Assembly (NCBI RefSeq): GCF_963921235.1
Contig: NC_086108.1
Span: forward strand, 74,030,001 to 74,094,000
Direction: 5' to 3'
Length of the DNA: 64,000 nucleotides
Source of the DNA: Mobula hypostoma
Taxonomy: Eukaryota
Positions 13,431 through 60,474 of the stretch are shown piece by piece. The notes beneath the pieces are model-generated. The model did no database searches. It was not told where the DNA came from and saw only the letters and a list, made by a program, of their open reading frames with translations. How positions within the stretch are numbered: position 1 is the first letter of the stretch; the number at the start of each line of letters is the position of its first letter. A program made the position numbers and the translations under genes.

Positions 13431-13614
13431 ATATCTCCACTCTTTTTAAGATGCTCCTTATATTTCCAGTGACTCAGTGCTCCTATGAATTGCCTTGGAA
13501 TGTTGTCCTATATTAAATATGAAAAATAAATTTTCAAGCAGTTTTTTAATTTTGTAATTGGTAGAAGAGAAAAATCCAAACTAATTATCATAAATTCCGG
13601 TGAAATCTACAAAT

Positions 13615-16129
13615 TATCTAAGCTGATTTGCAGGGGGATGGGAACCAGAATTAGTGTGGCTGGGGTGAAAATAAATGATATTGAAAGTTTAAGCAAATCC
13701 GCTGATAGAAAGGTTGTGAGTGGTGGTAAAAATCTTCTGAGGTGTATATATTTCAATGCTAGGAGTATTGCGGGGAAGGCGGATGAGTTGAGGGCGTGGA
13801 TTGACACGTGGAATTATGATGTTGTAGCAATTAGTGAAACTTGGCTACAGGAGGGGCAGGACTGGCAGCTTAATATTCCAGGGTTCCGATGTTTCAGATG
13901 TGATCGAGGCAGAGGAATGAAAGGTGCGGGAGTAGCATTGCTTGTTAGGGAAAATATTACAGCAGTGCTCAGGCAGGACGGATTAGAGGGCTTGTCTACT
14001 GAGTCCTTATGGGTGGAGCTGAGAAACAGGAAAGGTATGGCCACATTAGTGGGATTGTATTGCAGACCACCCAATAGTCAACGAGACTTGGAAGAGCAAA
14101 TCTGCAGAGAGATAGCAGACAACTGCAGGAAACATAAAGTTGTGGTGGTAGGGGATTTTAATTTTCCATACATTGATTGGGACTCCCATACTGTTAGGGG
14201 TCTAGATGGTTTAGAGTTTGTAAAATGTGTTCAGGAAAGTTTTCTAAATCAGTATATAGAGGGACCAACTAGAGGGGATGCAATATTGGATCTCCTGTTA
14301 GGAAACGAATTAGGGCAAGTGACGGAAGTCTGTGTAGGGGAGCACTTTGGTTCCAGTGATCATAACGCCATTAGTTTCAATTTGATCATGGACAAGGATA
14401 GATCTGGTCCTCGGGTTGAGGTTCTGAACTGGAAGAAGGCCAAATTTTGAAGAAATGAGAAAGGATCTAAAAAGCGTGGATTGGGACAGGTTGTTCTCAG
14501 GCAAAGATGTGATTGGTAGGTGGGAAGCCTTCAAAGGGGAAATTTTGAGAGTGCAGAGTTTTGTATGTTCCTGTCAGGATTAAAGGCAAATTGAATAGGA
14601 ATAAAGAACCTTGGTTCTCAAGGGATATTGCAACTTTGATAAAGAAGAAGAGGGAGTTGTATGAAATGTATAGGAAACAGGGGGTAAATCAGGTGCTTGA
14701 GGAGTATAAGAAGTGCAAGAAAATACTTAAGAAAGAAATCAGGAGGGCAAAAAGAAGACATGAGGTTGCCTTGGCAGTCAAAGTGAAGGAAAACCAAAGA
14801 GCTTTTACAAGTATATTAAGAGCAAGAGGATTGTAAGGGATAAAATTGGTCCTCTTGAAGATCAGAGTGGTCGGCTTTGTGCAGAACCAAAGGAAATGGG
14901 GGAGATCTTAAATAGGTTTTTTGCGTCTGTATTTACTAAGGAAGCTGGCATGAACTCTATGGAATTGAGGGAATCAAGTAGTGAGACCATGGCAACTGTA
15001 CAGATTGAAAAGGAGGAGGTGCTTGCTGTCTTGAGGAAAATTAAAGTGGATAAATCCCCGGGACCTGACAGGGTGTTCCCTCGGACCTTGAAGGAGACTA
15101 GTGTTGAAATTGCGGGGGCCCTGGCAGAAATATTTAAAATGTCGCTGTCTACGGGTGAAGTGCCGGAGGATTGGAGAGTGGCTCATGTTGTTCTGTTGTT
15201 TAAAAAAGGATCGAAAAGTAATCCGGGAAATTATAGGCCGGTGAGTTTAACGTCAGTAGTAGGTAAGTTATTGGAGGGAGTACTAAGAGACAGAATCTAC
15301 AAGCATTTGGATAGACAGGGGCTTATTAGGGAGAGTCAACATGGCTTTGTGCGTGGTAGGTCATGTTTGACCAATCTGTTGGAGGTTTTCGAGGAGGTTA
15401 CCAGGAAAGTGGATGAAGGGAAGGCAGTGGATATTGTCTACATGGACTTCAGTAAGGCCTTTGACAAGGTCCCGCATGGGAGGTTAGTTAGGAAAATTCA
15501 GTTGCTAGGTATACATGGAGAGGTGGTAAATTGGATTGGACATTGGCTTAATGGAAGAAGCCAGAGAGTGGTGGTAGTAAATTGCTTCTCTGAGTGGAGG
15601 CCTGTGACTAGTGGTGTGCCACAGGGATCAGTGCTGGGTCCATTGTTATTTGTCATCTATATCAATGATCTGGAATGATAATGTAGTAAATTGGATCAGC
15701 AAGTTTGCTGATGATACAAAGATTGGAGGTGTAGTAGACAGTAAGGAAGGTTTTCAGAGCCTGCAGAGGAACTTGGACCAGCTGGAAAAATGGGTTGAAA
15801 AATGGCAGATGGAGTTTAATACTGACAAGTGTGAGGTATTGCAAGTTGGAAGGACAAACCAACGTAGAACATACAGGGTTAATGGTAAGGCACTGAGGAG
15901 TGCAGTGGAACAGAGGGATCTGGGAATACAGATACAAAATTCCCTAAAGGTGTCATCACAGGTAGATAGGGTCGTAAAGAGAGCTTTTGGCACATTGGCC
16001 TTTATTAATCGAAGTATTGAGTATAAGAGCTGGAATGTTATGATGAGGTTGTATAAGGCATTGGTGAGGCCGAATCTAGAGTATTGTGTTCAGTTTTGGT
16101 CACCAAATTACAGGAAGGATATAAATAAA
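13615..16129 (+). mobile_element. CR1 LINE ORF2 (APE endonuclease + RT), frameshifted, 3'-truncated
   Basis: APE in ORF 13638-14450 (NARS, ISETW, GDFN, LDL, SDH). RT in 14896-15678 and 15611-16174 ([21 protein letters not shown]). Confidence 0.95.
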
Positions 16130-16239
16130 GCCCTGCCATCAACTCCATGCAAAATTTTCAACAGGAGGACCTGAAGACCTGAAACCAAGCTGGTCACAAC
16201 GTGTCTTGCCCAGGGACTTTTTTGTATCCACCTGTAATG

Positions 16240-17010
16240 CCAGCTCAACACACACAAAATGCTGGACGGACTCAGTAGGTCAGGTTTCATCTGTGGAAAC
16301 AGTCAATGATTCGGGCCAAGAACCTTCATCCAGACTGGAAATGGAGGGTAAGGTGGAGAAGCTACAAGGTGATAGGTGAAACCAGGTGGGTGGGGGAGAG
16401 GGGATGAAGTAAGAAGCTGGGAGGTAATAGGTAGAAAAGGCAAAGGGTTAGTGAAGAAGGAATCAGATTGGAAAGGAGAGTGGATTACGGGAAAAAGGAA
16501 TGAAGGAGGGGATCTAGAGGGAAGTGATAGGCAGCTGAGAAGAGATAAGAGTGGGGAATAGAAGAAAAGGAAAGGGGAAGCAAAAGAAAACAACAAAAAA
16601 ATACCAGGAGAAATTGATGTTCATGCCATCAGTTGAAAGCTACCTGGACAGAATATGAGGTGTTGCTCCTCCACCCTGACAAGTGGCCTCATCGTGGCAG
16701 AAAAGGAGGCCATGAACCAACATGTCAAAATAGGAATGAGGATATAAATTAAAGTGGTTGGCCACCAGAAAATTGTGCTTTTTGCAAATGAAGTGGAAAT
16801 GCTCAACAAAGCAGTCCCCCAATTTACGTCAGGCTTCAGCAATAGATAGGAGGCTGCACCAGGAACACTAGATACAGGAAATAACTCACACAAAATTGCA
16901 GGTGAAGGTTTGCCTCATCCAGAAGGACTGTTTGGGGCCCTGTACAGAGGTGAGGGAGGATGTAAATGGGCAGATGAAGCATTTCTGTCACTTGCAGGGA
17001 TACATGCCAG
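16240..17010 (-). mobile_element. Decayed Penelope-like element 3' end (GIY-YIG remnant + terminal repeat)
   Basis: Homologous to 47057-48052; remnants GDCFVEH, VANHFN, EEQHLIF. Confidence 0.75.
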
Positions 17011-17673
17011 CAGGGAAATTAGTTTATTTATTTTCAAAGTATACAACTTGAAATTATTCTTCTTCAGATAGCCATGAAAACCAAGAAAGAAAAGACAGGC
17101 AAGCATGATCATCAACCCCCCCTCCAAAACCTCCCCCCTCCCCACACAAAAAAATGAACAAAAATAAAACAGACACATGAACCCCCAAATTCCTCCTCCC
17201 GCACAAAAAACAAAAACAATCATGCAAGAAGTACAGAATATAAAGAACTATAAGACAGAAAAAAAAAGTTTATAGTCCAAGTCCACATCCAATATGCAGA
17301 AAACCTGGGCAACATTCACCAGGCCCAGCGGCAGACCTTTCCCTCTTCTAGCAGAGCCATCAAAAAAAAAACAGACAGCCAGCGCTCATCCTTTGCACTT
17401 GCCTCAATACTTCAATCACCCTCACTGCTTTGATCAGCCAACAATGAAACCTTTAATCGGCAAAATGGAATTTTTTAAAATGGTTTGCGTCCCTGTCCCT
17501 CAGCCTTTGCACATGCTGTCTGTCTCCCAGAATCTTCTCAGAGACTGCAGAGCACTGAAACACCTAAACGATCTTCAAGCTTCTGCATTTGCTTGATGTT
17601 TTAATCTCCCTCATCACTTTAACCCAGTGAACAATGGAAGCCTTAATAAGCTAAGTGGAGTCAAACATTGTCA

Positions 17674-18224
17674 AACAACAGGAATTCTGCAGATGCTGGA
17701 AATTCAAGCAACACACATCAAAGTTGCTGGTGAACGCAGCAGGCCAGGCAGCATCTGTAGGAAGAGGTGCAGTCGACGTTTCAGGCCGAGACCCTTCGTC
17801 AGGACTAACTGAAGGAAGAGTGAGTAAGGGGTTTGAAAGTTGGAGGGGGAGGGGGAGATCCAAAATGATAGGAGAAGACAGGAGGGAGAGGGATAGAGCC
17901 AAGAGCTGGACAGGTGATAGGCAAAAGGGGATACGAGAGGATCATGGGACAGGAGGTCCGGGAAGAAGGACAAGGAGGGGGACCCAGAGGATGGGCAAGA
18001 GGTATATTCAGAGGGACAGAGGGAGAAAAAGAGTGAGAAAAAGAATGTGTGCATAAAAATAAGTAACAGATGGGGTACGAGGGGGAGGTGGGGCCTTAGC
18101 GGAAGTTAGAGAAGTTGATGTTCATGCCATCAGGTTGGAGGCTACCCAGGCGGAATATAAGGTCCACGGCCTCCTCTACTGTAAAGATGAAGCCACACTC
18201 AGGTTGGAGGAACAACACCTTATA
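17674..18224 (-). mobile_element. Young Penelope-like element 3' end with 5' inversion
   Basis: Near-identical to 47053-47550. The last ~62 nt are the reverse complement of the expected continuation. Confidence 0.88.
17771..17806 (-). ncRNA. Minimal type I hammerhead ribozyme motif (Penelope-associated)
   Basis: Minus strand AGTC-CTGACGA-AGG gtctcgg CCT-GAAAC-GTC^GACT: complete CUGANGA/GAAA/UH core with stem I AGTC/GACT. Confidence 0.75.
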
Positions 18225-19539
18225 TGTGTCATAAGCTGCAAGTAACATAGACTCATCCATCTCCTGCTCTCGCCATTTAATCAGATACCCAAAACCAAAG
18301 ATGCTACCAGCTATGGCTGTTTTTGCGGGAGAAGAACAATGCAGAAGTCCATGTTATCTTACATTTTTAAACACTTGCAAGTGAGAACTCAGTGTATGAA
18401 GGGACATGACAAACTGCAGATGCAGGCATATGGAGCAAGGAACAAACTGCTGGCAGGATTCTACATATCACGCAACATATGTAGGAGAAAAGGTATAGCC
18501 AATGTTTTAGGTCAAGACCCCACACATTCTGATGCAGTGATTTGACACAGAACTTCAAATATCCTTTTGCAGCTTGACATGCTGAGTTTCGACAGCAGTT
18601 TCGTTTAGTTCTTGGTTTACTAAAGTCTCTCAATTTGACACAGGCATTTATTTTTTCACAAAACAGGAATTCCTTCAGTGTGAAATCTAAAATACAAACC
18701 ACCATATGGAGAAAATAATTCACACTTCAACTATGAATGACACTTGTCCAGGACTCAACAATGGAACTGCCGAAAGCAGAGTTCATATGTGCAAGTTTGA
18801 ACCACATTCTATTAAGTGTCAATGTCAGAAGCACTACTTTCTGTTCACTGGTTTCTCATCCTTGCACTGCAAGACTGCTGCCACGTGCTGAAAACTGTAT
18901 TTTAGAATTAGCCCTGCTTTGGTAATCAGTTGAAAATGTTTGCATATTTTTTTAAAGAAATTATATGCTTTCCCATCATGAGAAATTTAAATTTGTCTGA
19001 GCTTGTTTGGTTAGCACAAAACAAAAACAACCTCTTTTGCCTCAGTTGACGCTCTTTTATGTAAGATTATCATGCAAGTCTGGTCTTGCTTGTGAAAGAG
19101 CACTCAGGCGTATTCTCAGTTACTAAGCCTGGCAACACTACCCCAGTACACCTACAATAAGCTTATCTTCATACAGCTCTCTATAATCTTGACGGTGTCT
19201 CACTTCACAGTGAAAGCCACTTGATGCTTCAAAGCATTCCATACTCATTTGACAAACCTATTAGCATTTAGAAAATAGGATTCTTTGAGCCCTTGTCATT
19301 AAACCACCCCGATATATTTTAAGATTGATAATCTTGTATTCAGGTTTGAAATAGCTATTGCTCATCATTTCTTTACCAGTCCTAAGACAGCAACCTCTGT
19401 TGAAAATTCGGGAAAGCAGCCAAACATGATAAGGCCAAATTTCATAAGCATTTTTCAAATTCTCAATTGCTTCAGGCAATTCAAAATGTCCTATAGAATA
19501 TAACACAACTAATCATTGCCTTTTCTCCCCCCATCATTC

Positions 19540-25202: not shown

Positions 25203-25318
25203 CATGCCAGCAGTTAGAGAAGGAGCTGACTGCCCGAATGCCTGATTCCGCATTCGCACCAAATTGGAGGATTCTGCTGACACTCGACACGTGGATGGCC
25301 CATACAGCAAATGTTTAC
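25203..25318 (-). CDS. MAST: Next coding exon (116 nt, phase 1 to 0) of the same MAST-family kinase
   Basis: Minus strand: acceptor tttttttaaaccAG, donor GTaggt. Translation (G)KHLLYGPSTCRVSAESSNLVRMRNQAFGQSAPSLTAGM contains the MAST signature SNLVRMRxQxxGQSAPSLTA. Phase is compatible with exon 42187-42337 (intron 25319-42186). Confidence 0.92.
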
Positions 25319-27400: not shown

Positions 27401-28583
27401 ATTATAATGGGAGATAAAAAAGAAACACAAGAGGAGCGAGCAATGTTACAGTTTTCATGAGAGTCTTCAACATGTAGTAAACTGGAAAAATCAAGTTGGT
27501 GCTGGATTCCAAAAGATCTTTATAGAATGTCTACAATATGGATTTTCACAGCAACTTGTGATTAAACCCACTAAGGAAAAGTCAATCTGGATTTGTTATG
27601 TAATGAACCAGATTTGGTTCAGGAGCTTAAAGTAAAAGACCATTAAGGAGACAGTGATTATAATATGAAATAACTTACCCTGCAGTCTGAGAGGAAGAAG
27701 CTAAAAGTCAGATGCATTGGCATTACAGTTGAATAAAGGTAACCACAGAGGCATGAGAGGGGAGCTGGCCAAAGCCGATTGGAAAGGGACCCTAGCAGGA
27801 ATGAAGGTAGAGCAGCAATGGCTGAAGCTTCTGGAGTAGATAAGAAGCCATGGGATTGGTTCATCCCAAATAAGGAGCAGCATTCAAAAGGAAAGATGAA
27901 GCAACAAGAGAAGTCAAAGATAGCATAAAAGCAAAAGAGAGGGCATACAATAAATCTAGAGAATTGGGAAGCTTTTAAAAACCAACAGAAGGCAAATAAG
28001 GAAGTAATATGAAAAGAAAAGATGAAATATGAAGGTAAGCTAGCTAATATATACTATATAAACAGTAAAAGAGAGGCAAATGTTGCCACTGGACAGTTGG
28101 GGGAGGGGGAGAAGTGAGTGTAGTCTCTATTGCTGAAGGGAAGTGCTTGGCCGGCTGAAAGGTCTGAAGATGGATAAGTCACCTGGAGTGGACAGACAAC
28201 ACCTGCAGTTTTGAAACAAGTAGCTGAAGAGATTGTAGAGGCATTAGTAGTGATCTTTCAAGAATCACTAGAGTCTGGAATTGTTCCAGAGGACTGGAAA
28301 ATCACTAATGTCACTCAAATCTTTAAGAGAGCAAGGCAAAAGACAGGAAATTTTCAGCTGGTTAGCCTGACTTCAGTGTTTGGGAAGATACTGAAGTTCT
28401 TTAAAGATGAGGTTTTGGGTAATCACATAATAAAATAGACCAAAATGAGCATCATTTCCTTAGGGGGAGATTTGACTGACAGATCTGTTGGAATTCCTTG
28501 AGAAAGTAACAAGCAGGATAGGGAAAGTGTCAGTGGATTGTGTTTACTTAATTTTCAAAAGGCATTGTCCTCGTTGTCCACAG

Positions 28584-30005
28584 GTACCGGAGGATTGGAA
28601 GGATGCGAATGTTGTCCCCTTGTTCAAAAAAGGTACTAGGGATAGTCCGGGTAATTATAAACCAGTGAGCTTTACGTCTGTGGTGGGAAAGCTGTTGGAA
28701 AAGATTCTTAGAGATAGGGTGTATAGGCATTTAGAGAATCGTGGTCTGATCAGGGACAGTCAGCATGGCTTTGTGAAGGGCAGACTGCGTCTAACAAGAC
28801 TGATGGAGCTCTTTGAGGAGGTGACCAAGCATATAGATGAGGGTAGTTCAGTGGATGTGATCTATATGAATTTTAGTAAGGCATTTGACAAGGTTCCACA
28901 TGGTAGGCTTATTCAGAAAGTCAGAAGAAGGCATGGGATCCAGGGACGCTTGGCCAGGTGGATTCAGAATTAGCTTGTCTGCAGAAAGCAGAGGGTCGTG
29001 GTGGAGAGAGTACATTCAGATTGGAGGGTTGTGACTAGTGGTGTCCCACAAGGATCGGTTCTGAGACCTCTACTTTTCGTGATGTTTATTAATGACTCTG
29101 ATGTGGGGGTAGAAGGGTGGGTTGGCAAGTTTACAGATGACACAAAGGTTGGTGGTATTGTAGATAGTGCAGAGGATTGTCGCAGATTGCAGAGAGACAT
29201 TGATAAGATGGGCTGAGAAGTGGCAGATGGAGTTCAACCCGGAGAAGTGTGAGGTGGTACACTTTGGAAGGACAAACTCCAAGGCAGAGTACAAAGTAAA
29301 TGGCAGGGTACTTGGTAGTGTGGAGGAGCAGAGAGATCTGGGGGTACCTGTCCACAGATCCCTGAAAGTTGCCTCACAGGTAGATAGGGTAATTAAGAAA
29401 GCTTATGGATTGTTAGCTTTCATAAGTCGAGGGATAGAGTTTAAGAGTTGCAGGTAATGATGCAGCTCTATAAAACTCTGGTTAGGCCACACTTGGAGTA
29501 CTATATCCAGTTCTGGTCGCCTCACTGTAGGAAGAATGTGGAAGCATTGGAAAGGGTACAGAGGAAATTTACCAGGATGCTGCCTGGTTTAGAGAGTGTG
29601 CATTATGATCAGAGATTAAGGGTGCTAGGGCTTTACTCTTTGGAGAGAAGGAGGATGAGTGGCGACATGATAGATGTGTACAAGATAATAAGAATAGATA
29701 GAGTGGATAGCCAGCGCCTCTTCCCCAGAGCACCACTGCTCAATACAAGAGGACATGGCTTTAAGGTAAGGGGTGGGAAGTTCAAGAGGGATATTAGAGG
29801 AAGGTTTTTTTACTCAGAGAGTGGTTGGTGCGTGGAATGCACTGCCTGAGTCAGTGGTGGAGGCAGATACACTAGTGAAATTTAAGAGACTACTAGACAG
29901 GTATATGGAGGAATTTAAGGTGGGGGGTTATATGGGAGGCAGGGTTTAAGGGTCAGCACATTGTGGGCCGAAGGACCTGTACTGTGCTGTACTGTTCTAT
30001 GTTCG
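28584..30005 (+). mobile_element. Young 5'-truncated CR1 LINE (RT + 3' end)
   Basis: ORFs 28488-29849; near-identical to the reverse complement of 37963-39400. Confidence 0.9.
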
Positions 30006-30599: not shown

Positions 30600-30945
30600 T
30601 CTTCTATTCCTCACTCTAACCCCTTCCCTCCCCAAGTCCCCTCCTCCTTCCTTTTCTCCGATAGTCGACTCTCCTCTCCTATCAGATTCTTTCCTTTCTG
30701 GCCCTTCACTTTTCCCAACCCCTTGGCTTCATCTATCAGCTTCAAGCTATCCTCCTTCCCCTCTCCCCCACCTTTTTCTTCTGTCATCTTGCCCCTTCCT
30801 TTCCAGTCCTGAAGAAGAGTCTCACCCAAAATGTCAACTGATTATTCATTTCCATCAATAGTGCATGACCTGCTGAGTTCCTCCAGCATCTTATTTGTGT
30901 ATTGCTTTAGATTTTCAGCATCTTCAGAATTTTTCATGTTTATTA
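30600..30945 (+). mobile_element. Decayed Penelope-like terminal repeat
   Basis: Pyrimidine-rich body, degenerate core cagtcctgaaga...aaaatgtcaactg, end gacctgctgagttcctccagcat. Confidence 0.65.
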
Positions 30946-33415: not shown

Positions 33416-33544
33416 TATTTTATCGCTCAATATAGATGGCACAGTAGTATGCCTGGTAGAGCAAGGATCCTGATTTTCACTGTTGCCTGAGTGGATTTTG
33501 CATATTGTCCCTTGACCAATTGAGTTTTGTCCAATCTCTTCAAG

Positions 33545-34090
33545 AGCAGATGCTGGAAATCCAAAGCAACGCATATGAAATGCTGGAGGTCAAGCAGCAT
33601 CCACGGAAATAAATAAACAGTTGACATTGTGGGCTGAGACCTTTCCTCAAAACTGAGAAGGAAGGGGAAAGACGCCAGAATAAAAAAGTGGGGGCAGGGG
33701 AAGGAGGTGAGCTGGAAGGGATAGGTGAAGCCAAGAGGGCGGGAAAAGTAAAGGGTTAGAGAGGAAGGAATCTGGTAGGAAAGGAGAGTGGACCATAAGA
33801 GAAATGGAAGGGGGGACCCATGGGGGAGTGATTAGCAGGTGAGAAATGAAAGGGCAAAAGGAATAGAGGAAGGGAGGGGGGAATTTTTTATTTAAACTGG
33901 ATGTAAAAATTGATATTCATGCCATCATGTTGGAGGCTACCCAGATGAAATATAAAGTGTTGCTCCTCCACCCTGAGTGTGGCCTCATCTTGGCACATGT
34001 CGACATGGCTCAACATGTTGGAATGGGAATTGCAATTAAAATGTTTGGCCACTGGGAAGTTCCACTTATGATGGATGGAGTGGAGGTCAG
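33545..34090 (-). mobile_element. Decayed Penelope-like 3' end
   Basis: Homologous to 47060-47680. Confidence 0.7.
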
Positions 34091-37962: not shown

Positions 37963-40928
37963 ATAGAACATAGAATAGAACAGCACAGTACAGGCCCTTT
38001 GGCCCACAATGTTGTGCCAACCCTCAAACCCTGCCTCCCATATAAGCACCCACCTTAAATTCCTCCATATACCTATCTAGTAGTCTCTTAAACTTCATCA
38101 GTGTATCTGCCTCCACCACTGACTCAGGCAGTGCATTCCATGCACCAACCACTCTCTGAGTAAAAAACCTTCCTCTAATATCCCCCTTGAACTTCCCACC
38201 CCTTACCCTAAAGCCATGTCCTCTTGTATTGAGCAGCGGTGCCCTGGGGAAGAGGCGCTGGCTATCCGCTCTATCTATTCCTCATATAATCTTGTACACC
38301 TCTATCATGTCTCCTCTCATCCTCCTTCTCTCCAAAGAGTAAAGCCCTGTCTCCCTTAATCTTTGATCATAATGCATACTCTCTAAACCAGGCAGCAACC
38401 TGGTAAATCTCCTCTGTACCCTTTCCAATGCTTCCACATCCTTCCTATAGTGAGGCAACCAGAACTGGACACAGTACTCCAAGTGTGGCCTAACCAGAGT
38501 TTTATAGAGCTGCATCATTACATCGCGACTCTTAAACTCTATCCCTCGACTTATGAAAGCTAACACCCCATAAGCTTTCTTAACTACCCTATCCACCTGT
38601 GAGGCAACTTTCAGGGATCTGTGGACATGTACCCCGAGATCCCTCTGCTGCTCCACACTACCAAGTATCCTGCCATTTACTTTGTACTCTGCCTTGGAGT
38701 TTGTCCTTCCAAAGTGTACCACCTCACACTTCTCCGGGTTGAACTCCATCTGCCACTTCTCAGCCCACTTCTGCATCCTATCAATGTCTCTCTGCAATCT
38801 TTGACAATCCTCTACACCATCTACAACACTACCAACCTTTGTGTTGTCTGCAAACTTGCCAACCCACCCTTCTACCCCCACATCCAGGTTGTTAATAACA
38901 ATCACGAAAAGTAGAGGTCCCAGAACAGATCCTTGTGGGACACCACCAGTCACAATCCTCCAATCTGAATGTACTCCCTCCACCACCACCCTCTGCCTTC
39001 TGCAGGCAAGCCAATTCTGAATCCACCTGGCCAAACTTCCCTGGATTCCATGCCTTCTGACTTTCTGAATAAGCCTACCGTGTGCAACCTTGTCAAATGC
39101 CTTATTAAAATCCATACAGATCACATCCACTGCACTACCTTCATCTATATGCCTGGTCACCTCCTCAAAGAACTCTATCAGGCTTGTTAGACACGATCTG
39201 CCCTTCACAAAGCCATGCTGACTGTCCCTGATCAGACCATGATTCTCTAAATGCCCAGAGATCCTATCTCTAAGAATCTTTTCCAACAGCTTTCCCACCA
39301 CAGACGTAAGGCTCACTGGTCTATAATTACCCGGACTATCCCTACTACCTTTTTTGAACAAGGGGACAATATTCGCCTCCCTCCAATCCTCCAGTGCCAT
39401 TCCTGTGGACAACGAGGACATAAAGATCCTAGCCAGAGGCTCAGCAATCTCTTCCCTCGCCTCGTGGAGCAGCCTGGGGAATATTCCGTCAGGACCCAGG
39501 GACTTATCCATCCTAATGTATTTTAACAACTCCAACACCTCCTCTCCCTTAATATCAACATGCTCCAGAACATCAACCTCACTCATATTGTCCTCACCGT
39601 CATCAAGTTCCCTCTCATTGGTGAATACCGAAGAGACGTATTCATTGAGGACTTCGCTCACTTCCACAGCCTCCAGGCACATCTTCCCACCTTTATCTCT
39701 AATCGGTCCTACTTTCACTCCTGTCATCCTTTTTTTCTTCACATAATTGAAGAATGCCTTGGGGTTTTCCTTTACCCTACTCACCAGGGCCTTCTCATGC
39801 CCCATTCTCGCTCTTCTCAGCCCCTTCTTAAGCTCCTTTCATGCTTCCCTATATTCCTCAATAGACCCATCTGATCCTTGCTTTCTAAACCTCATGTATG
39901 CTGGCTTCTTCCACCTGACTATAAACACAAAATAATCTACAGATGCTGGGGTCAAAGCAACACTCACAACACGCTGGAGGAACTCAGCAGGTCGGGCAGC
40001 ATCCGTGGAAAAGATCGGTCGACGTTTCGGGCCGGAACGTCGACCGATCTTTTCCACGGATGCTGCCTGACCTGCTGAGTTCCCCCAGCGTGTTGTGAGT
40101 GTTGCTTCCACCTGACTAGATTTTCCACCTCACTTGTCACCCATGGTTCCTTCAGCCTACCATTCTTTATCTTCCTCACTGGGACAAATTTATCCCTAAC
40201 ATCTGCAAGAGATCGCTAAACATCGACCACATGTCCATAGTACATTTCCCTGCAAAAACATCATCCTAATTCACACTCGCAAGTTCTAGCCTTATAGCCT
40301 CATAATTTGCCCTTCCCCAATTAAAAATTTTCCTGCCCTCTCTGATTCTATCCTTTTCCATGATAATGCTAAAGGCCAGGGAGCGGTGGTCACTGTCCCC
40401 CACTGAGAGATCTGTGACCTGACCCGGTTCATTACCTAGTACTAGATCTAGTATGGCATTCCCCCTAGTCAGCCTGTCCACATACTGTGACAGGAATCCG
40501 TCCTGGACACACTTACCAAACTCTGCCCCATCTAAACCCTTGGAACTAATCAGCTGCCAATCAATATTAGGGAAGTTAAAGTCATCCATGATAACAACCC
40601 TGTTATTTTTGCACCTTTCCAAAATCTGCCTCCCAATCTGCTCCTCTGTATCTCTGCTGCTACCAGGGGGCCTATAGAATACCTCCAATAGAGTAACTGC
40701 TCCCTTCCTGTTCCTGACTTCCACCCATACTGACTCAAAAGAGGATCCTGTTACATTACCCACCCTTTCTGTAGCTGTAATAGTATCCCTGACCAGTAAT
40801 GCCACCCCTCCTCCCCTTTTTCCACCCTCTCTATCCCTTTTAAAGCACTGAAATCCAGGAATATTGAGAATTCATTCCTGCCCTGGTGCCAGCCAAGTCT
40901 CTGTAATGGCCACTACATCATAATTCCA
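37963..40928 (-). mobile_element. Young CR1 LINE (APE to 3' end) inserted in an older plus-strand CR1
   Basis: 507-aa RT ORF 38282-39805 and APE ORF 40266-40805; 3' tail at 37963. Confidence 0.95.
39922..40104. mobile_element. Palindromic Penelope-like terminal-repeat insertion with 14-bp TSD
   Basis: TSD cttccacctgacta at 39908-39921 and 40105-40118; inverted arms about 39957-40028 and 40035-40105. Confidence 0.85.
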
Positions 40929-42186: not shown

Positions 42187-42337
42187 CTCCCATTGCAGCA
42201 CCAAAGCTCCCTCTTCGAAGTTTTGCATCATCTTCACTGAACTGGTGTAGGACTTTAGAAACTTTTCCTGATGAACAATCGAGATCAGGATTGCTCAATT
42301 TCCTGAAAAGCCACGGAGAGGTTCCAGAAAGCTCTGC
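42187..42337 (-). CDS. MAST: Internal coding exon (151 nt, phase 0 to 1) of a MAST-family microtubule-associated serine/threonine kinase, N-terminal region
   Basis: Minus strand: acceptor attcttttgacAG, donor GTgaag. Translation AELSGTSPWLFRKLSNPDLDCSSGKVSKVLHQFSEDDAKLRRGSFGAAMG(G) matches the FRKxSNPD...SxD..L.RG N-terminal segment of MAST2/MAST4 long isoforms as recalled. Paralog not determined. Confidence 0.9.
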
Positions 42338-42974: not shown

Positions 42975-45760
42975 TTCAAAGTAAACTTATTATCAAGGTA
43001 CATATGTCACCATATACTGCCCTGAGATTCATTTTCCTATGGGTATTCATGTAAATGCAAAGAAACACAATGAAATCAAGGGAAAAGTGCAAAGACAGAT
43101 AACAACCAACATGCAAAAGACAAACTGAAAATTCAAAGTGGAAAAAAAATAATAATAATAAGGGTGCCACAGGATCACGACGCTATTACAGATAGGGCAG
43201 AGATCAGAATTCAATCTCGGTGTCCTCTGTAAGGAATCTGTATATCCTTCCTGTGGAATACATGGGTTTCTCCCATTTCCTCCCACAGTCCAAAAGCCTA
43301 GGTTAGGGTTAAGTCGGGGTTGTCGATGGTTGCTGGGCGGTGCACCTCGGTGGGTCAGAAGGGCCTATTCCATGATGTATCTCTAAATAGCATAAAATAT
43401 CTATAAGTAAAATAAAAATAAAGATTGAGACTATGAGACGAAGAGTCCTTGAAATTGATTTCATAGGTTGTGGGATAAGTTCAGTATTGGGGTGTGCGAA
43501 CATATGCCCTCTTGTTCAAGAGCCTGATGGTTGAGGGGTAATAACTATTATTGAAACTGGTGGTGTAGGACCTGAGGCTCGTGTACCTGCTTTCTGATGG
43601 CAGCAGTGATAAGACAGCATTGCCTGGATGGTGGGAATCCTTGATAATGGATGATTTCCTGAGACAGCACTCCTTGTAGATGTGCTCAATGATGGGGAGT
43701 GTTTTACTCACGACGGACTGGGCTGTATCCACTACATTTTTCAGGCTTTTCCATTCAATGATGTTTCCATACCAGGACATGATGCAACCAGGCAATATAC
43801 TTTCCATTGCTCATCAATGGAAGTTCATCATAGTTTTAGATATTATGCCAAATCTTCGCAAACCTTCAAGCAGAGGCACTGTTGTAAAGGTGCTTGTGTG
43901 CTGGACCTAGAACACATCCGCTGAAATAATACTGCTGAGAAATTTAAAGTTGCTGATCTTCTCTATCCTGATCCCCTGATGAGGCCAGCTTATGGACATT
44001 TGGTTTCCTCCTTCCAATAATCAGCTCTTTGGTTTTGCTAACTTTCAGTAAGAGGTTATTGCGGTACCTTCTTCCTGATGGCATGAGGGAGAACAGAGCA
44101 TGATCTGGGTGGTGGGAGTCCCTGATGACAGATGCTGCTTTCCTGCGACAATGCTCTGTGTAGATGTGCTCAGTTGTGAGGAGGGCTTTATCCATGATGG
44201 GCTAGGCTGTATCCACTACTTTTTGTAGGATTTTCTATTCGAGGGCATTGGTGTTACCCTATCAGGCTGTGATGCAGCTAGTCAAATATACTCTCCACCA
44301 CAGATCAACAGAAGTTCGTCACAGTTTTAGATGTCATGTCAAACCTTCGCAAACTCCTAAGGAAGTAGAAGCACTGCTGTGCTTTCTTTGTAATTGCACT
44401 TTCATGCCGAGACCAGACAGATCCTCTGAAAACACTGAGGAATTTAAAGTTGCTGACCCTCTCCACCTGTGATCTCCCGATGAGAAATGGCTCAAGGTCC
44501 GCTGGTTTTCTCCTGTTGTAGTTATAATCAGCTCCTTGGTCTTGCTGACTTTGAGTGAGAGGGTGTTGCAGTGACACCACTCAGTCACAGGATCATTAGG
44601 AGCTGTGCGAGCGTGACCTCGTGATGGTCAATGCAACCAGAGAAGGCATTGATTCATCTGGAAGCAAAGCTCATTGTCACCCATGTTGCTTGATTTTACT
44701 TCATTCAGTTGATAGCACTCAAGCCCTGCCACAACTGTCGGGCATCTTTCATTGATTCAAATTTAATCCAGAATTGCCATTTCACCTGTGAGATCATACC
44801 AGGATCTCTTCTAACTTTCTTGAGCCCCAGGCTTGAATACCTCTGATCTGACCCTCAGCATATTGTAGATGTCATGGTTCATCCAGGACTTCTGGTTAGG
44901 GAAGACTGAATGATTCTATACTTGCCTGTAATTGTTTTCATAAAGTCCGTGACAACCACGGTGTACTCATTTGAGTCCTTGAACAATGCCCGGTCCACTG
45001 ATGTGAAACAACTCCATAGCAGCTCCCCTGCCTCCCACGTCCAGCTCTTTGTTCTTTTGCCTCTGCCGGTGGGCAAGTTGGAGAAGTTCAGCCAAATGAT
45101 CAGATTTCCCAAAATGTGCTCCGGGCTTGGAACGGTAAGGGAGCGCTAATATGTTGGAACCTCTGATGGTAACTGGGCAGGGATTTCTTCAAACAAACCT
45201 GAATGAAATCCCCAACTATGATATGAAATGTGTCAGGATAGATTGTTTCTTGTTTGGAGACGGAATCAAGCAGCATCTCAAACGTTTGATTATAGTGAAC
45301 TGCTGGTGATTTATAAACAGCAGTCTAGCTATGGTGGACTTAGAACGAACAGTAATAGAATGGATGGTGTTTAATCGTTAGGTGTTCAAGGTCAGGGGAA
45401 CACGAGTTTGACAAAATAGCCACATCAGAGCACCACAGAGAGTTTATTATGAAACAGACACTTCCACCTTTTGCCTTTTATGAATCAACAGTTGATCCAT
45501 TCTGCACATTGAGAAGCCTTCAGGTCTGATCACCATATCTTGTGTATTCTGAGTAAGCCATGTCTCGGTAAAACACAGAACACAAAACACAACAATTTCT
45601 CAAACCCCTTCCATACACCAATCTTGCCCTCAGGTCCTCAATTTAATTCTCCAGCAAGGGCACATTTGCTAACAAGATACTGGGTATAGGAGTCCTCATT
45701 CCTCTGCATTTCAGCCTTCACCCCCCCCCCCACCCAGCCTCACTTCAGACCATGACAATG
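42975..45760 (-). mobile_element. Cluster of decayed Rex1/Babar-type LINE fragments (3' tail, RT, APE remnants)
   Basis: ORFs 43481-43807, 43944-44195, 44305-44588, 44879-45112. Confidence 0.75.
43165..43390 (+). mobile_element. Decayed V-SINE (HE1-like) with CR1-type tail
   Basis: atgggtttctcc...tttcctcccacagtccaaa central-domain motif, then gaagggcct...tgtatctctaaat. Confidence 0.55.
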
Positions 45761-46139
45761 AACTTCCATCTACTTACTTAAAGGTGCCATACCTGATGGC
45801 TTGAGTGTTAAGTATGGCAAGTCCTTCTGAAGATCCTGAAGTCTGCAATTCATTAAGTTGATTTAAAAGCACACTGCTTAAAGGCAAATTACATACTACA
45901 ACTTGCAGTGAGAGTAATTCAAAAGAGGTCTGTTCAGAACAATTGTATATAGACTGCAGAACATTGCCGTGCTTCACCATCATCTTGCACAATGCCTTAC
46001 ACAATTTTTAATAACGAAGCCTCCAATTACTTACCTCATAGTACTTCTGCTTTAAATCTGACAGGCACTATAGTCCTTGCTGGACTATACTTGGGGGCCT
46101 TGCTTCTAGTAGCAACATAGCATGTACACAACTTTCTGC

Positions 46140-46280
46140 ACCTAACAGACAACCAGACAAGCCAGAAGAAACCCATGCAGGCATGGGGAGAACATACAAA
46201 CTCCTTGCAGACACAATGTGAATTGATCCCTAGTTGCTGACGATGAGAAGTGTTGCACTACCTGTTATGCTACTGTATCA
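46140..46280 (-). mobile_element. Decayed V-SINE fragment
   Basis: gaagaaacccatgca..catggggagaacatacaaactcctt motif (reverse of the V-domain); a similar fragment lies at about 56390-56490. Confidence 0.5.
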
Positions 46281-47056
46281 CGCTCTTGTTCGTTCAAGTG
46301 CCCCTGTTCTTAACTGAAAGGGACCAATATCTTATCGTTATACATGTGCCAGAATTATCAAATGTGAAGATACAGTTATAAATTTTTTGCATTAGCACTG
46401 GAGAAATTAATAACACCTTTCAAATCACAAATTATATAACTGAAAATCATAATTCATACCTTTAAGAGACAAGGTGAGAAGCATTTCTTTTGTGAAAATA
46501 CATTCCAAAACAGAGTTTTATGGAATGGAGAGCATAACAGCAGGAGTTACTTCTAAACAGGGTTAAATGACATGCAAAATGGAGCAATTGTAGATTTTGC
46601 AGCATTTAGGCTCAAGAAGATTAAATGGTATGAAATAGCAACTTCAGAAGAATAAAGAGAATGATAAAATGGACAAAAGGGGCGAATGATAACACAGTGA
46701 TATATTTTGGAAGGCAAAGAAATCCAAAGTAAACTGGATAGTTACATTTCAAAAGGAGGGTACAGCAATTAGGTGATCAGGGTGGTGGTTGGAGATTGCA
46801 TGGTTTATCACCTGTGAGGCAAATTAGGTACTTACTCGTTATTTATATTTTACTTCAAATTTTCCAGCATTCTTTGGCAAAAATCACTCCCTTAACAAGC
46901 CTTTACATCCCCAAATAAATTGAATTTTGCTTTATAAACATAGTATCTTATAAAACAGTATTCTGCAGGAGTTGAACAAAAATAATCGATGCCACATTTC
47001 TTTAGCTTGGCATCTCCTATATTTCAGAAAGCTGGAGCAAACTAATATTCAGAAAC

Positions 47057-48052
47057 AACAGGAATTCTGCAGATGCTGGAAATTCAAGCAACACACATCA
47101 AAGTTGCTGGTGAACGCAGCAGGCCAAGCAGCATCTATAGGAAGAGGCGCAGTCGACGTTTCAGGCCGAGACCCTTCGTCAGGACTAACTGAAGGAAGAG
47201 TGAGTAAGGGATTTGAAAGCTGGAGGGGGAGGGGGAGATGCAAAATGATAGGAGAAGACAGGAGGGGGAGGGATAGAGCCGAGAGCTGGACAGGTGATAG
47301 GCAAAAGGGGATATGAGAGGATCATGGGACAGGAGGTCCGGGAAGAAAGACGGGGGGGGAGGGGTGACCCAGAGGATGGGCAAGAGGTATATTCAGAGGG
47401 ACAGAGGGAGAAAAAGGAGAGTGAGAGAAAGAATGTGTGCATAAAAAAGAGTAACAGATGGGGTACGAGGGGGAGGTGGGGCCTAGCGGAAGTTAGAGAA
47501 GTCAATGTTCATGCCATCAGGTTGGAGGCTACCCGTACGGAATATAAGGTGTTGTTCCTCCAACCTGAGTGTGGCTTCATCTTTACAGTACAGGAGGCCG
47601 TGGATAGACATGTCAGAATGGGAATGGGATGTGGAATTAAAATGTGTAGCCACTGGGAGATCCTGCTTTCTCTGGTGGACAGAGCGTAGATGTTCAGCAA
47701 AGCGGTCTCCCAGTCTGCGTCGGGTCTCACCAATATATAAAAGGCCACATCGGGAGCACCGGACGCAGTATATCACCCCAGTCGACTCACAGGTGAAGTG
47801 ATGCCTCACCTGGAAGGACTGTTTGGGGCCCTGAATGGTGGTAAGGGAGGAAGTGTAAGGGCATGTGTAGCACTTGTTCCGCTTACACGGATAAGTGCCA
47901 GAAGGGAGATCAGTGGGGAGGGATGGGGGGGACGAATGGACAAGGGAGTTGTGTAGGGAGCGATCCCTGTGGAATGCAGAGAGATGGGGGGAGGGAAAGA
48001 TATGCTTAGTGGTGGGATCCCGTTGGAGGTGGCGGAAGTTACGGAGAACTTA
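47057..48052 (-). mobile_element. Young 5'-truncated Penelope-like element: Cys-rich linker + GIY-YIG endonuclease + terminal repeat
   Basis: Uninterrupted frame 48046-47483: ...PCKRNKCYTC...HFTCESTGVIYCVRCSRCGLLYIGETRRRLGDRFAEH...PDGMN. TSD aatattcagaaac at 47044-47056 and 48053-48065. Confidence 0.92.
47151..47186 (-). ncRNA. Minimal type I hammerhead ribozyme motif (Penelope-associated)
   Basis: Same 36-mer as 17771-17806: AGTCCTGACGAAGGGTCTCGGCCTGAAACGTCGACT. Confidence 0.75.
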
Positions 48053-49100
48053 AATATTCAGAAACTGTCTCAATAAAAGGTCCAAATCTGAGAATAAATC
48101 AGCGGTATGAGATACTGCAGTATCATGTGGCTCCCCTTTCATAAGCTTTTTTTCTTACTCCTCAAATACAAACAACTACCACAAAACCTTAACATTTAAT
48201 CTATCCTATTAGCTATACTGCTGTTAAAAATCGATTTTAGTTCTCTTTAGTTCTCTTCTACAGCCCCTTGTGTCTGTATTGTTTTTCCAGACCACCTCAC
48301 TCCTTTTCATCAGGTAATACACACACCACAGCAACCACCATCACCACCTCTCAACCACCATCACCACACTCAGCAACACCCCATGCCAAAGAGCTCCTTC
48401 CACCCACAGAAGTGAATAGATTCCTTTATTACAAACCCTGTATACATCAAAAATAACAAAATTAAAGCAAGAAACAAATCTGACCATGATTCAAAGTTAA
48501 GTTTAAAAGCTGGTTTCCTAGAACCCATCTTCAAACAGTGAAGAGGTAGAAGGCAAGAATGTTGCAATCATGGTTTTTTTTAAAAAATTCAATCTTCTAG
48601 CATCAAAAGAATAATCAAAAGTTGTCATACGGATGTTATCAGGAAGTGCCTTCAGTTGGTCAATCATATGGCTTTACTAGCTAAACATCCAGTGACATGA
48701 AGTCTATTTCCTTAGATCATCTGATTTCAGAATACCACTGTCAACCTAGAATGCAGAATTAAAATGTGCAGCCCTTTCTGCAACTTCCTAAAAGTATCAA
48801 ACTTAAGTGTTCAATTTGATAAGGTGCTAGACTTGTGATGCTAATAGTTTGGCATAAACTGGCCAACTTGCAAAACAAAGCCAGCAGCTCACTGCGGAAA
48901 TTGAATTCTGTGATGTCATACCAGCACCGTCTCCACTCTTCGACGGGCTGGATACAATGGTCTGAATGAGTTGGCTATCTATTACAAAGAGGTCTTTAGC
49001 AAGTAGTAAGTAGTAAGACACAAGCAATTGGCTGCCAGGGGCCCTGAGGCAGATTGCCCTGGTATGTGTGTATGTATTTATCTACTTATTTATTTACTAA

Positions 49101-50043
49101 GATTACGCCGGATAATTTTGAAAACGCCGGTTTCGAGTAAAAACAACAGGCGTCCACACTAAGCGTTTTTCAAAATATCTCCGTCCACATTAGGCAGGTA
49201 TTTGGGCGAATCTCCTCCTACTGGGCATGCGCAGGACACACAGAAAACAAGCGAAGAGGAAACGATATACTTAGTGCGAGTTTGTCCAGTTACAGAGTAG
49301 AAAAACTTCAAAGGAATTGCTCTTGGCTCTCGCGCAGGAGGACTTAAAACTTAAAAAAAACAAATACTGGAGCGTATGGAGGCAACCGACAGGGAGTTCA
49401 CGGACAGTATGACCCAGCTGACGACGAACATTGAAAAACTGACTAACTCTGTTGCATTAATAAAGCACCTTGTTAAATGTACAAAACGTCTGCATCAGCG
49501 TTATCTTGTATTTCCATATAATGTTACATTAGGCTGTTACACATCTATTGTCAGAGAAGTACTTGCATAAATAGGTAAACCACCTTCATACAAGCAAGGA
49601 CAGAAAACAGGGTGAAGTGAGTATAAGTGAGTCAGTAAGCTATGGGTCAAAGTATTTGGTGAGTACATTTCTAACCCTTCTGGCTTCAGTCTCGTCCATC
49701 TGTTCTGAAATTGTTTGGTGGTGGCATTCAAGAAAACAACGAACATCTGCTCCGGCACGTCATGACAGCATTTTTAAATAGTCAAAAAAGCTCACTTTAC
49801 AATTTAACTCTCACGCCGTTCACACCGACTGCATGTTATAACAGCTTGCGCAGTACCAAGCAGAAGCAGAAAAAAGCATTGTTGTTGTGGTGTTGTCATG
49901 ACAATGTTTTTAAATCTCTCCGTTTACCCCGTACACACTACGCCGGATATTAAGCGTTTTCAGATTTATTCACTCTGGAGAGTGTTTTTGAAAATCTCCG
50001 TTTTCGGGGGCTGAAAACACCGGCTCAGTGTGGACGGGAGGGC
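49101..50043. mobile_element. Non-autonomous DNA transposon, probably PIF/Harbinger-type
   Basis: CpG-rich island with recurring cgtccacact / agtgtggacg and tttgaaaa..tccg subterminal motifs at both ends; no ORF. Confidence 0.5.
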
Positions 50044-50166
50044 ATAGTTTTCCACAGTAGGCTGGTCTGGGGATAGAGCGCTATCTCTTGTTAAACCTGT
50101 TTTTTTAAAACAACTTCTAATGTGTCTGATATTGATGGCATTCAAAATTAAGATTTTAATGCCATG

Positions 50167-50684
50167 TGTGACGCCCAGCAGAGGTACCGGACTGATGATG
50201 CTAATGAGAGAGATAAGAAAGATAATGGAGAAACATTCAAAATGCTAATAAGAGAGAAGAGAGGGATTAACGGGAAAGGAACACAATTCAGCTATTGACA
50301 GACCAGTAGCTTTGAACCTGAACTGTTTGAAGTTTGATGGACAGATGATACCCCAGCAGGGGGATAAAAGGAGCAGGTTTGCTAAGGAACACGACACCAC
50401 GAGACCCTGGAAAGAGTAGTGTGCCCCCACAAGCTGGTGAGAGTTTGGAGGTCTGGTTCGCGGGAACTGATCAGAGGCTCACGGGGTGTAAAGGTACGAT
50501 CAGTGGGAACCTGGAGTGTGTGTCTGCCCTTGCCTGGGTGCCAGGTTCACCGCGGAAGAACAATCGTATCTGGAACGGAGGGGTCACAGTCAGTGACCAG
50601 AGCGGGATAGAAGACATCAAAGGGTCTGCCCGAAACCAACTGCGAAGACATCCAAAAGGTCTGCCTGAAACCATATTGCATCTA

Positions 50685-50721
<37 letters not shown>

Positions 50722-51007
50722 AACAGTACGACAACAGCGATTACTGAGAACTGCACTAAACTGAACTGAACTCTGCTTCACTTATCATTTTACCCCTAGA
50801 CTGCAATAGAGCTTGGTTGCTTCCTATTACTCTAGTTCTGTGTATATGTGTGTATTATCATTGCTAACCTGTTACATTTATATCCCTACGATTAGTGTAC
50901 TGTATTACTTATTCCTTTAAATAAAACTTTATTAGTTTCTAGTAATCCAGACTCCAATGAGCATTCCATTTCGCTGGTTTGGCAACCCAGTTACGGGGTA
51001 CGTAACA
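50167..51007 (+). mobile_element. Probable solo LTR (Gypsy-like)
   Basis: TGtgacg...cgtaaCA inverted termini, AATAAA near 50919, internal (TC)n; no TSD found. Confidence 0.6.
50685..50721 (+). repeat. (TC)n microsatellite
   Basis: Direct reading. Confidence 0.9.
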
Positions 51008-52950: not shown

Positions 52951-53083
52951 GAAATTTAAGAGACTACTAGACAGGTATATGGAGGAATTTAAGGTGGGGG
53001 TTATATGGGAGGCAAGGTTTAACGGTCCGCACAACATTGTGGGCTGAAGGGCCTGTACTGTGCTGTACTATTCTATGTTCTAT
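52951..53083 (+). mobile_element. Severely truncated young CR1 3' end inserted in Tc1
   Basis: Matches 29878-30003. Confidence 0.85.
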
Positions 53084-53296
53084 GTATGTTGCTGCATTAA
53101 TTTTACCCTCTACCTTCACAAGCCTTCCAGGGCCTGCTGCAGTGAAGCATCCCCACTGCATGATGAAGCCACCACCAGGCTTCATGGGAAGGATAATGTG
53201 TCTTTGATGATGTGCTGTGTTTGGCTTACACCAAACACAGTGTTTAGTCTGATGGCCAAAAAGCTCAATTTTCATTTCATCAGCACATAAAACAGA

Positions 53297-53806
53297 CAGA
53301 CATCCCACCCTGCAAAAACTCATTTCAGGGAGGTAGCACCATCAATTTGCAGGAGACTCCTGGAACTTCCGGGAGAGGTGGGATGTCTGCAATAGAGTAG
53401 CTCCTAAGCAGTTAGCCAGCTAGTTTAAATAACATTAGCTATACTAATGAACGAATGACACCTGTTAAACTCACCTCAACATGTCTCTTACAGTCTTGAC
53501 CCACCATGGGCAATAGAAAAGTCACTGTTGCAAACAGTGCAGCGAGCAATACTGTCATTATTTTGACCCCTATTAGGCAGGGGTACACTTTAGTGTAGTC
53601 TGGGGTGACATACGTTTTATATTTTCTTTTTTTGGAACACTCTGCCATGGCGCGTTTTCTCTCTTGTTTTTTTTTTCTTTTCTCTCTCTCTCGCTCTCTC
53701 TCGAAAAAATTGATTTCCGGGACATTGTATATAATTTGCGGGCATCAGGGAGCCACTATTAATATGTGGGAGACTCCCAGAACTTCTGGGAGAGGTGGGA
53801 TGTCTG
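53297..53806. mobile_element. MITE (hAT-like termini) inserted in Tc1
   Basis: TIR cagacatcccacc / ggtgggatgtctg; flanking duplication ataaaac at 53287-53293 and 53807-53813. Confidence 0.7.
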
Positions 53807-59505: not shown

Positions 59506-59883
59506 CTATCTAATGGATCTCATGATTGAAAAGCCAACATACATCTACTCATGTCTAGAAGAACAGATTACTGACAGGGTTTAACTTTAAGAAAAGTAAA
59601 ACAGATGCCAAATGGATTGAGATTAAACAATAGTTCAACAATAAATCAGGGCTCAACTGCTTACTGTGTAAGACCTGTTGTGGGGTGGATGAAGTCACCG
59701 AAGAGACAGAGTTACTGGTAGATACAAAGCAGCTTCTTTATTCGACACAACAAGGTACAGCAGGCATCATACGGATGGAGACGCTTTAGGTAGCCGAAAG
59801 TGGGCTCGATATTTGTTTGCTAAACACAAAGGGCAATCCCTATTTACGGAGTTAGAGACAATGCATAGACAATAGAGAGGGAT

Positions 59884-60474
59884 AGGGATAGAGTTTAAGA
59901 GTCGCAATGTAATGATGCAGCTCTATAAAACTCTGGTTAGGCCACTCTTGGAGTATTGTGTCCAGTTCTGGTCACCTCGCTATAGGAAGGATGTGGAAGC
60001 ATTGGAAAGGGTACAGAGGAGATTTATCAGGATGCTGCCTGGTTTAGAAAGTATGCATTATGATCAGAGATTAAGGGAGCTAGGGCTTTACTCTTTGGAG
60101 AGAAGGAGGATGAGAGGAGACATGATAGAGGTGTACAAGATAATAAGAGGAATAGATAGAGTGGATAGCCAGCGCCTCTTCCCCAGGGCACCACTGCTCA
60201 ATACAAGAAGACATGGCTTTAAGGTAAGGGGTGGGAAGTTCAAGGGGGATATTAGAGGAAGGTTTTTTTACTCAGAGAGTGGTTGGTGCGTGGAATGCAC
60301 TGGTCAGTGGTCAGAAGTCAGTGGTGGAGGCAGATACACTAGTGAAGTTTAAGAGACTACTAGACAGGTATATGGAGGAATTTAAGGTGGGGGCTTATAT
60401 GGGAGGCAGGGTTTGAGGGTCAGCACAACATTGTGGGCCGAAGGGCCTGTACTGTGCTGTACTATTCTATGTTC
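59884..60474 (+). mobile_element. Young CR1 LINE 3' end
   Basis: ORF 59912-60352; near-identical to 29431-30003. Confidence 0.9.

Follow-up and report, generated by a model that had tools for sequence, protein, structure and literature searches.

An intact minimal hammerhead motif in a young, 5'-truncated Penelope-like element on the MAST2 strand of the ray Mobula hypostoma

A hammerhead ribozyme (HHR) in the pLTR is the published norm for Penelope-like elements (PLEs), in which it takes a minimal form (min-HHR): besides the catalytic boxes, its defining features are a short helix I, one base left unpaired between positions 9 and 10.1, a conserved G10.1-C11.1 pair and, where helix III would be, a palindrome (PMC4209133). 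According to the same source, the partner of G10.1 is C in the >80% consensus and U in several published members (Fig. S3), and the PLE-associated rows include motifs with a G·U closure of helix II and with N7=C before CGUC. Min-HHRs are described there as working as dimers; the monomers showed no cleavage and the dimers weak cleavage. For the anole PLE, HHR cleavage was reported only with the element protein, and the HHR was dispensable for insertion in vitro (PMC11167929), while among nine Xenopus retrozyme dimers one cleaved and eight did not (10.64898/2026.07.22.740005). The in vivo role of PLE hammerheads is presented as an open question (PMC8557442; PMC11167929).

The stretch analysed here (the window) is 64 kb of the Mobula hypostoma genome, and at 47 kb it contains a motif of this kind on the minus strand, inside the remnant of a PLE (Table 1). 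Among the rows of Fig. S3 of PMC4209133, the closest are those of Acropora digitifera Neptune, Ixodes scapularis (1), Strongylocentrotus purpuratus (1) and Xenopus tropicalis (2). The ray motif shares with the published ones a U-rich 5' flank, a helix I of 3-5 bp, CUGACGA followed by an unpaired A, a G-started helix II, GAAA, the loopless C-G-U palindrome and the pLTR position downstream of the ORF; most of the published ones, too, are single motifs in copies truncated at the 5' end. It differs in its host, since we saw no entry for cartilaginous fish in Table S1 or Fig. S3 of that work, and in helix II, a short stem of 4 bp with a G·U closing pair where the consensus has G-C.

The element itself resembles the Neptune/Nematis EN+ PLEs described in PMC8557442 in its C-terminal GIY-YIG domain, CX2-5CxxC linker, HHR in the pLTR, 5' truncation, inverted 5'-truncated arms and tail of 30-40 bp; unlike them, the 47-kb copy is without RT and without an upstream pLTR, and it lies in an AT-rich site with a clear target-site duplication (TSD) rather than in a microsatellite, its assignment to Neptune/Nematis coming from the linker and the Cys and His residues of the endonuclease. 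With Anolis Poseidon PAc, as described in PMC11167929, it shares a pLTR HHR upstream of the tail, an AT-rich target and a copy made from RNA uncut at the HHR; however, Poseidon is without the Cys linker, cleavage was assayed for PAc and its site is a prediction in the ray motif, and no ORF start was located in the ray pLTR. Non-LTR retrozymes also have a type I HHR, there derived from PLE pLTRs, and HHR retrozymes were reported in the one chondrichthyan genome sampled, but those are tandem non-coding repeats and the 47-kb element is a single copy with an ORF remnant (10.64898/2026.07.22.740005). A retrozyme identity was rejected for the ray element, which has no tandem non-coding units but one motif flanked by TSDs and fused to the remains of an ORF. 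The intronic HHRs of amniotes at RECK, CTCL and DTNB are likewise type I HHRs at host genes, but they are conserved across species (PMC6155905), unlike the lineage-specific 47-kb motif, whose site is empty in a relative. Our literature search on cartilaginous fish returned no description of this PLE family's motif, although preprint supplements may cover a related family.

Table 1. Coordinates of the element, the hammerhead motifs and the MAST2 exons in the window.
Feature	Position	Strand	Basis
PLE insertion, 5'-truncated, 996 nt from one duplicated target site to the other; RT absent, one pLTR	47057..48052	-	copy comparison, contigs, TSD
3' end of PLE ORF: CX4CxxC linker and GIY-YIG, stop-free, no start codon	47483..48049	-	ORF, Pfam, alignment
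Pyrimidine-rich pLTR segment, stop codon to motif; subfamilies differ	47187..47482	-	sequence, copies, contigs
Conserved segment 3' of motif; last ~35 nt are the optional PLE tail	47053..47150	-	copies, contigs, PMC8557442
TSD, 3' side, 13 bp; the 4 nt adjoining the element also match the element's own end	47044..47056	.	sequence
TSD, 5' side, 13 bp	48053..48065	.	sequence; organism B contig with empty site
Minimal type I hammerhead motif	47151..47186	-	sequence, descriptor, folding, published consensus
Helix I, 4 bp	47186-47183 with 47154-47151	-	motif anatomy
CUGANGA box	47182-47176	-	motif anatomy
Unpaired A	47175	-	register from folding and window copies
Helix II, 4 bp, 4-nt loop	47174-47171 with 47166-47163	-	folding and window copies
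GAAA	47162-47159	-	motif anatomy
Palindromic ACGU	47159-47156	-	motif anatomy
Predicted cut site	between 47155 and 47154	-	hammerhead consensus, predicted
Second intact motif, 36/36 nt identical, in sister insertion 17673-18225	17771..17806	-	descriptor, copy comparison
MAST2 coding exon of 151 nt (phase 0 to 1), homologous to exon 2 of the long isoform	42187..42337	-	homology, phases
Following MAST2 coding exon of 116 nt (phase 1 to 0)	25203..25318	-	homology, phases

Anatomy, searches and predicted folding of the motif

The minus strand from 47186 to 47151 reads AGTC CTGACGA AGG-gtctcgg-CCT GAAAC GTC GACT, letter for letter the 36 nt that the first-pass annotation had taken for an intact minimal hammerhead of a PLE. 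This identification holds: all core nucleotides are present and in order (CUGANGA, GAAA and the NUH triplet, here GUC), helix III is replaced by a loopless palindrome, and each consensus feature of the PLE minimal type I hammerhead given in PMC4209133 is found, apart from the G-C closure of helix II. The stem II register drawn in that annotation, with an A-U closing pair and a 7-nt loop, had to be replaced, being the poorer of two: its pair probability is 0.02, versus 0.86-0.96 for a register that leaves the A after the core bulged, in the role of the customary unpaired base, and gives helix II a G·U closing pair. In the 12 segments compared within the window, 91% of the helix II cells are paired in the bulged-A register versus 77% in the earlier one; older copies have G-C at helix II and would therefore carry an A·C mismatch there under the earlier register. 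Helix I is short and open (type I topology), and 96% of its cells are paired in the window copies.

The closing pair of helix II is G·U in five and G-C in three of nine window segments. At 47 kb the strict G-C form of the G10.1 pair is absent, G10.1 pairing with the pyrimidine U; decay private to this copy was ruled out as the origin of U11.1, which is common to the three closest copies (47163, 17.8-kb and 477). Covariation analysis, as proposed in the first-pass annotation, performed no better than chance in the small and decayed set of 12 window segments: one two-sided change was counted, and 334 of 500 shuffles scored as high.

A descriptor search, also proposed there, was run with CTGANGA-N4-30-GAAACGT over the 64-kb window and 100 shuffles; it recovered the 47-kb motif (47182-47156) and one more at 17802-17776, two matches versus 0.01 expected, a count that none of the 100 shuffles reached. 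Among the 14 matches of a looser CUGANGA...GAAA scan, only the same two run on into CGUC and a complementary stem I. Rfam returned no hammerhead on 44000-51000 even at E<=10, only two chance matches, a silence that probably reflects min-HHRs lying outside its models. More copies were sought by pattern in metagenome, genome and viral contigs, and none was found.

Folding energies, which omit tertiary contacts and proteins, predict that the core of the monomer is paired, G5-G8 with C15.2-C17 (P 0.96-0.98). For the dimer in its active geometry -9.5 kcal/mol was calculated, compared with -20 for a pair of monomers and -28.3 for the most stable dimer fold, tertiary contacts and proteins being ignored here too. 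Within 248 nt of native context, the probability predicted for the motif stems is about 0.001. Scores for a possible conserved hairpin on the 3' side of the motif were inconsistent, with z = -0.68 in the 47-kb copy, -2.3 and -2.9 in two others and -0.4 in a fourth.

The 5' edge of the motif has features of a splice acceptor as well: a pyrimidine tract and AG finish at helix I (47189-47185, minus strand), and the intron of the Drosophila virilis PLE likewise ends at helix I (PMC4209133). A further acceptor lies in the element at 47221. Moreover, a strong-looking acceptor and donor, sense to MAST2, bound a 157-nt pseudo-exon (47966-47810, minus strand) that would shift the frame if spliced in.

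The element, its relatives and its age

The stop-free frame noted upstream of the motif in the first pass was found again as 188 codons from stop to stop (48049-47486), ending 297 nt upstream of the motif, and its GIY-YIG identity was upheld by a Pfam match close to threshold (E=1.2e-4, 22.7 bits versus a cut-off of 22.6). The best homologue of the frame is a Mobula hypostoma protein, 91% identical and with RT sequence upstream; the next six, 65-83% identical, come from Hypanus sabinus and Rhincodon typus. Thirteen homologous proteins were found among 323 candidates, two of which match Pfam PF00078, and three of the 13 are annotated as host-gene isoforms. RT lies upstream of GIY-YIG in the longer relatives (43-91% identity), and the 47-kb copy lost it through 5' truncation.

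The linker cysteines C55, C60 and C63 (CX4CxxC) are invariant in eight of eight aligned proteins, as are C98, C101, H120 and H136, which we read as the CCHH motif of the Neptune/Nematis endonuclease. An invariant linker together with two Cys and two His points to an element of Neptune/Nematis type as described in PMC8557442. Hallmarks of EN+ PLEs other than the GIY-YIG domain C-terminal to RT were found as well: a pLTR with an HHR, an optional tail (present on one arm and missing from the other in fold-back copies), inverted 5'-truncated arms and a TSD.

The age of the insertion was studied by comparing region 46900-48200 with four of 24 sequencing runs, namely contig sets of organism A (possibly the sample of the window itself) and of organism B (a related species) and two raw-read runs, which gave no aligned reads. 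The contigs of organism A contain both insertion junctions and show no differences. A single contig of organism B, 1,938 nt long, connects 46900-47043 with 48053-48200; there 47043 is directly followed by 48053, so that 1,009 nt are absent, corresponding to the element plus one TSD copy. As the site is empty in a related species, on the evidence of this one contig, the insertion is young and not conserved, in agreement with the youth assigned to it in the first pass.

The same contig sets bear on the family as a whole. More than 225,000 contigs aligned to the element in each set, and the summed contig depth, which is not a copy number, was about 1e6-1e7 on the element versus 17-39 on the flanks. 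Both edges of the motif are among the best six loose-end places of each contig set (best 12 of 2,714 overall), supported by 516 and 364 contigs at 47186 and by 480 and 373 at 47150; no loose end at the cut site (47154) was among those best 12 of 2,714. Beyond the edges, the consensus letters are similar to what flanks the motif in the older window copies. Loose ends at both exact edges indicate that diverged subfamilies have the 36 nt in common but not the sequence on either side, a break in similarity which points to selection on the motif within the transposon lineage. Retention of the motif by the family, as the first-pass annotation had supposed, thus appears to be borne out by the edges. 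The lack of differences inside the motif is by itself not significant, since none of the 40 listed differences (183 in total) falls there and only about 1.4 would be expected by length; moreover, the segment 3' of the motif is covered at least as deeply, so that conservation is not confined to the ribozyme.

Other copies in the window and the MAST2 gene

Comparison of copies gave 12 aligned pLTR segments at nine window loci, three fold-backs among them. The sister insertion holding the second intact motif (17673-18225) is 94% identical to the 47-kb copy; 63 nt at its 5' end are inverted (at 18163), and it has a TSD-like word of 5 bp. Older copies with broken motifs, about 70-78% identical where aligned, lie at 16245-17023, 33543-34057, 30740-30944 and 18411-18520, and only two of the seven window segments that span the CUGANGA box retain the full core.

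Two of the fold-backs, 375-570 and 39936-40107, are short pLTR insertions with 14-bp TSDs and the tail on one arm only, and their junctions fall in self-complementary parts of the motif. Both arms of the third (1497-1714) carry an A6-to-C change at hammerhead core position 6; since the change is common to both arms, a core-dead RNA was copied too, or the arms were homogenised later, and this fold-back suggests a core-dead template or subfamily. We considered the fold-back junctions as a record of in vivo cleavage and rejected the idea on inspection of the junctions. At 375-570 the inverted arm seemed to start at the cut site, yet it matches through 480, and the variant of the direct arm at position 16.2 recurs in it as the complement, so that it more likely spans the site. 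Of the other two junctions near the motif, that of 1497-1714 is at helix I and that of 39936-40107 within helix II. Among the best 15 of 847 contig joints the sole opposite-strand joint is 47097/47185, which is the best-supported such joint in both contig sets.

Two MAST2 exons with matching phases lie on the strand of the motif (Table 1), both missed by a strict exon scan and recovered by a looser one. The exon at 42337-42187 matches eight proteins at 68-78%, of which six are named MAST2 or MAST2-like. The sense orientation to MAST claimed in the first pass is therefore correct. Both intact motifs (47 kb and 17.8 kb) are sense to MAST2, 29,380 nt apart, with the two exons between them.

Placement within an intron, the other part of that claim, is less direct for the 47-kb copy: the first exon of the MAST2 long isoform (about 44 residues) had no match in 42.3-64 kb, so that the copy probably lies in a long intron 1. 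It may also lie upstream of a nearer MAST2 start, as two homologues have very short alternative first exons that are undetectable here. The 17.8-kb copy is downstream of both exons and therefore more securely intronic. At 826-897 (minus strand) strong splice sites bound a candidate exon to which no homologue was assigned; it could be an alternative MAST2 exon or a chance feature.

The rest of the window holds long LINE-type frames (endonuclease and RT) with a CR1-like appearance (13530-16171 and 28476-29846, plus strand; 38285-40871, minus; 59876-60349, plus), others that resemble Tc1/mariner transposase fragments (5408-5922, plus; 52970-53341, minus), and short frames at 53755-53475 (minus) whose Cys/His pattern looks to us like the start of a zinc-finger DNA transposase.

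Proposed mechanism, alternatives and meaning

The reading we favor, with a probability of roughly 0.85, is that the 47-kb motif is a standard min-HHR of an EN+ PLE, carried by a dead-on-arrival copy, and that in MAST2 pre-mRNA, if transcribed, it is most likely inert. By analogy with published PLEs, in tandem master elements (pLTR-ORF-pLTR) two motifs would pair through ACGU, building helix III, and the dimer would cut after GUC, probably with help from the element protein, freeing the element RNA from read-through transcripts. The insertion at 47 kb would have started with an RT-GIY-YIG protein nicking the AT-rich site; reverse transcription would have begun at the tail 3' of the motif, and cDNA synthesis would have passed the uncut ribozyme to stop about 900 nt later inside the ORF, steps suggested by the observed structure of the copy.

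As the cDNA extends about 900 nt beyond the cut site, the template RNA was uncut there; this uncut template and the core-dead copy at 1497-1714 agree with the protein-dependent and dispensable HHR reported for the anole element (PMC11167929). From the literature we infer that in tandem masters the motif forms a dimer of weak activity, probably helped by protein, which would process read-through transcripts. Being a lone monomer whose core is predicted to be paired upon folding, the motif at 47 kb is most likely inert; it would decay like the older copies nearby.

Three other explanations were weighed. The motif could be conserved for a non-catalytic reason, as a protein-binding or folding element of the pLTR, the start region of the ORF or a splice acceptor, being catalytically marginal or dead in this subfamily. 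The frequent G·U closure of helix II, the predicted sequestration of the core, the A6-to-C change on both arms of 1497-1714, by which a core-dead RNA was still retrotransposed, and the acceptor-like helix I, comparable with the D. virilis intron (PMC4209133), all fit this explanation. However, the youngest subfamily keeps all catalytic positions, the unpaired base and the palindrome together, published PLE-associated motifs also have G·U closure or N7=C before CGUC (PMC4209133), and the anole motif does cleave when its protein is present (PMC11167929); we consider a non-catalytic role unlikely.

Cleavage of the host transcript is very unlikely in our estimation. Here the two identical sense copies, or copies in trans, would dimerise and cut MAST2 pre-mRNA, lowering or truncating the long isoform, as could be expected from the identity (36/36) and common sense orientation of the two intact window motifs, the abundance of the family as seen in contig depth (not a copy number) and the dimeric action of min-HHRs (PMC4209133). 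Nevertheless, two of two motifs in sense would be expected one time in four, two exons separate the copies, the active dimer is predicted to lie about 19 kcal/mol above the best dimer fold and the stems hardly form in native context, the site is empty in organism B, and eight of the nine Xenopus retrozyme dimers did not cleave (10.64898/2026.07.22.740005). We give the same small credence to its general form, in which the ray PLE family would seed introns with identical, sense, intact-core min-HHRs, and pairing in cis or trans, or the element protein, would lead to cutting of host pre-mRNA. If true, MAST2 would be a natural experiment on PLE ribozyme cleavage in vivo, since it carries a pair of identical motifs 29 kb from one another and a related species has the empty allele.

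A domesticated intronic ribozyme like those of amniote RECK, CTCL and DTNB is close to negligible as an explanation: sense orientation at a kinase gene recalls the cases reviewed in PMC6155905, but the empty orthologous site in organism B contradicts conservation across species, and the motif still sits inside a young transposon with its TSD and is without helix III.

Taken as the standard min-HHR of an EN+ PLE, the motif extends a known pattern, that PLE pLTRs carry min-HHRs, to a ray family. A single copy does not settle the role of PLE hammerheads; the family, abundant and with subfamilies of many ages, is suited to a genome-wide test of it.
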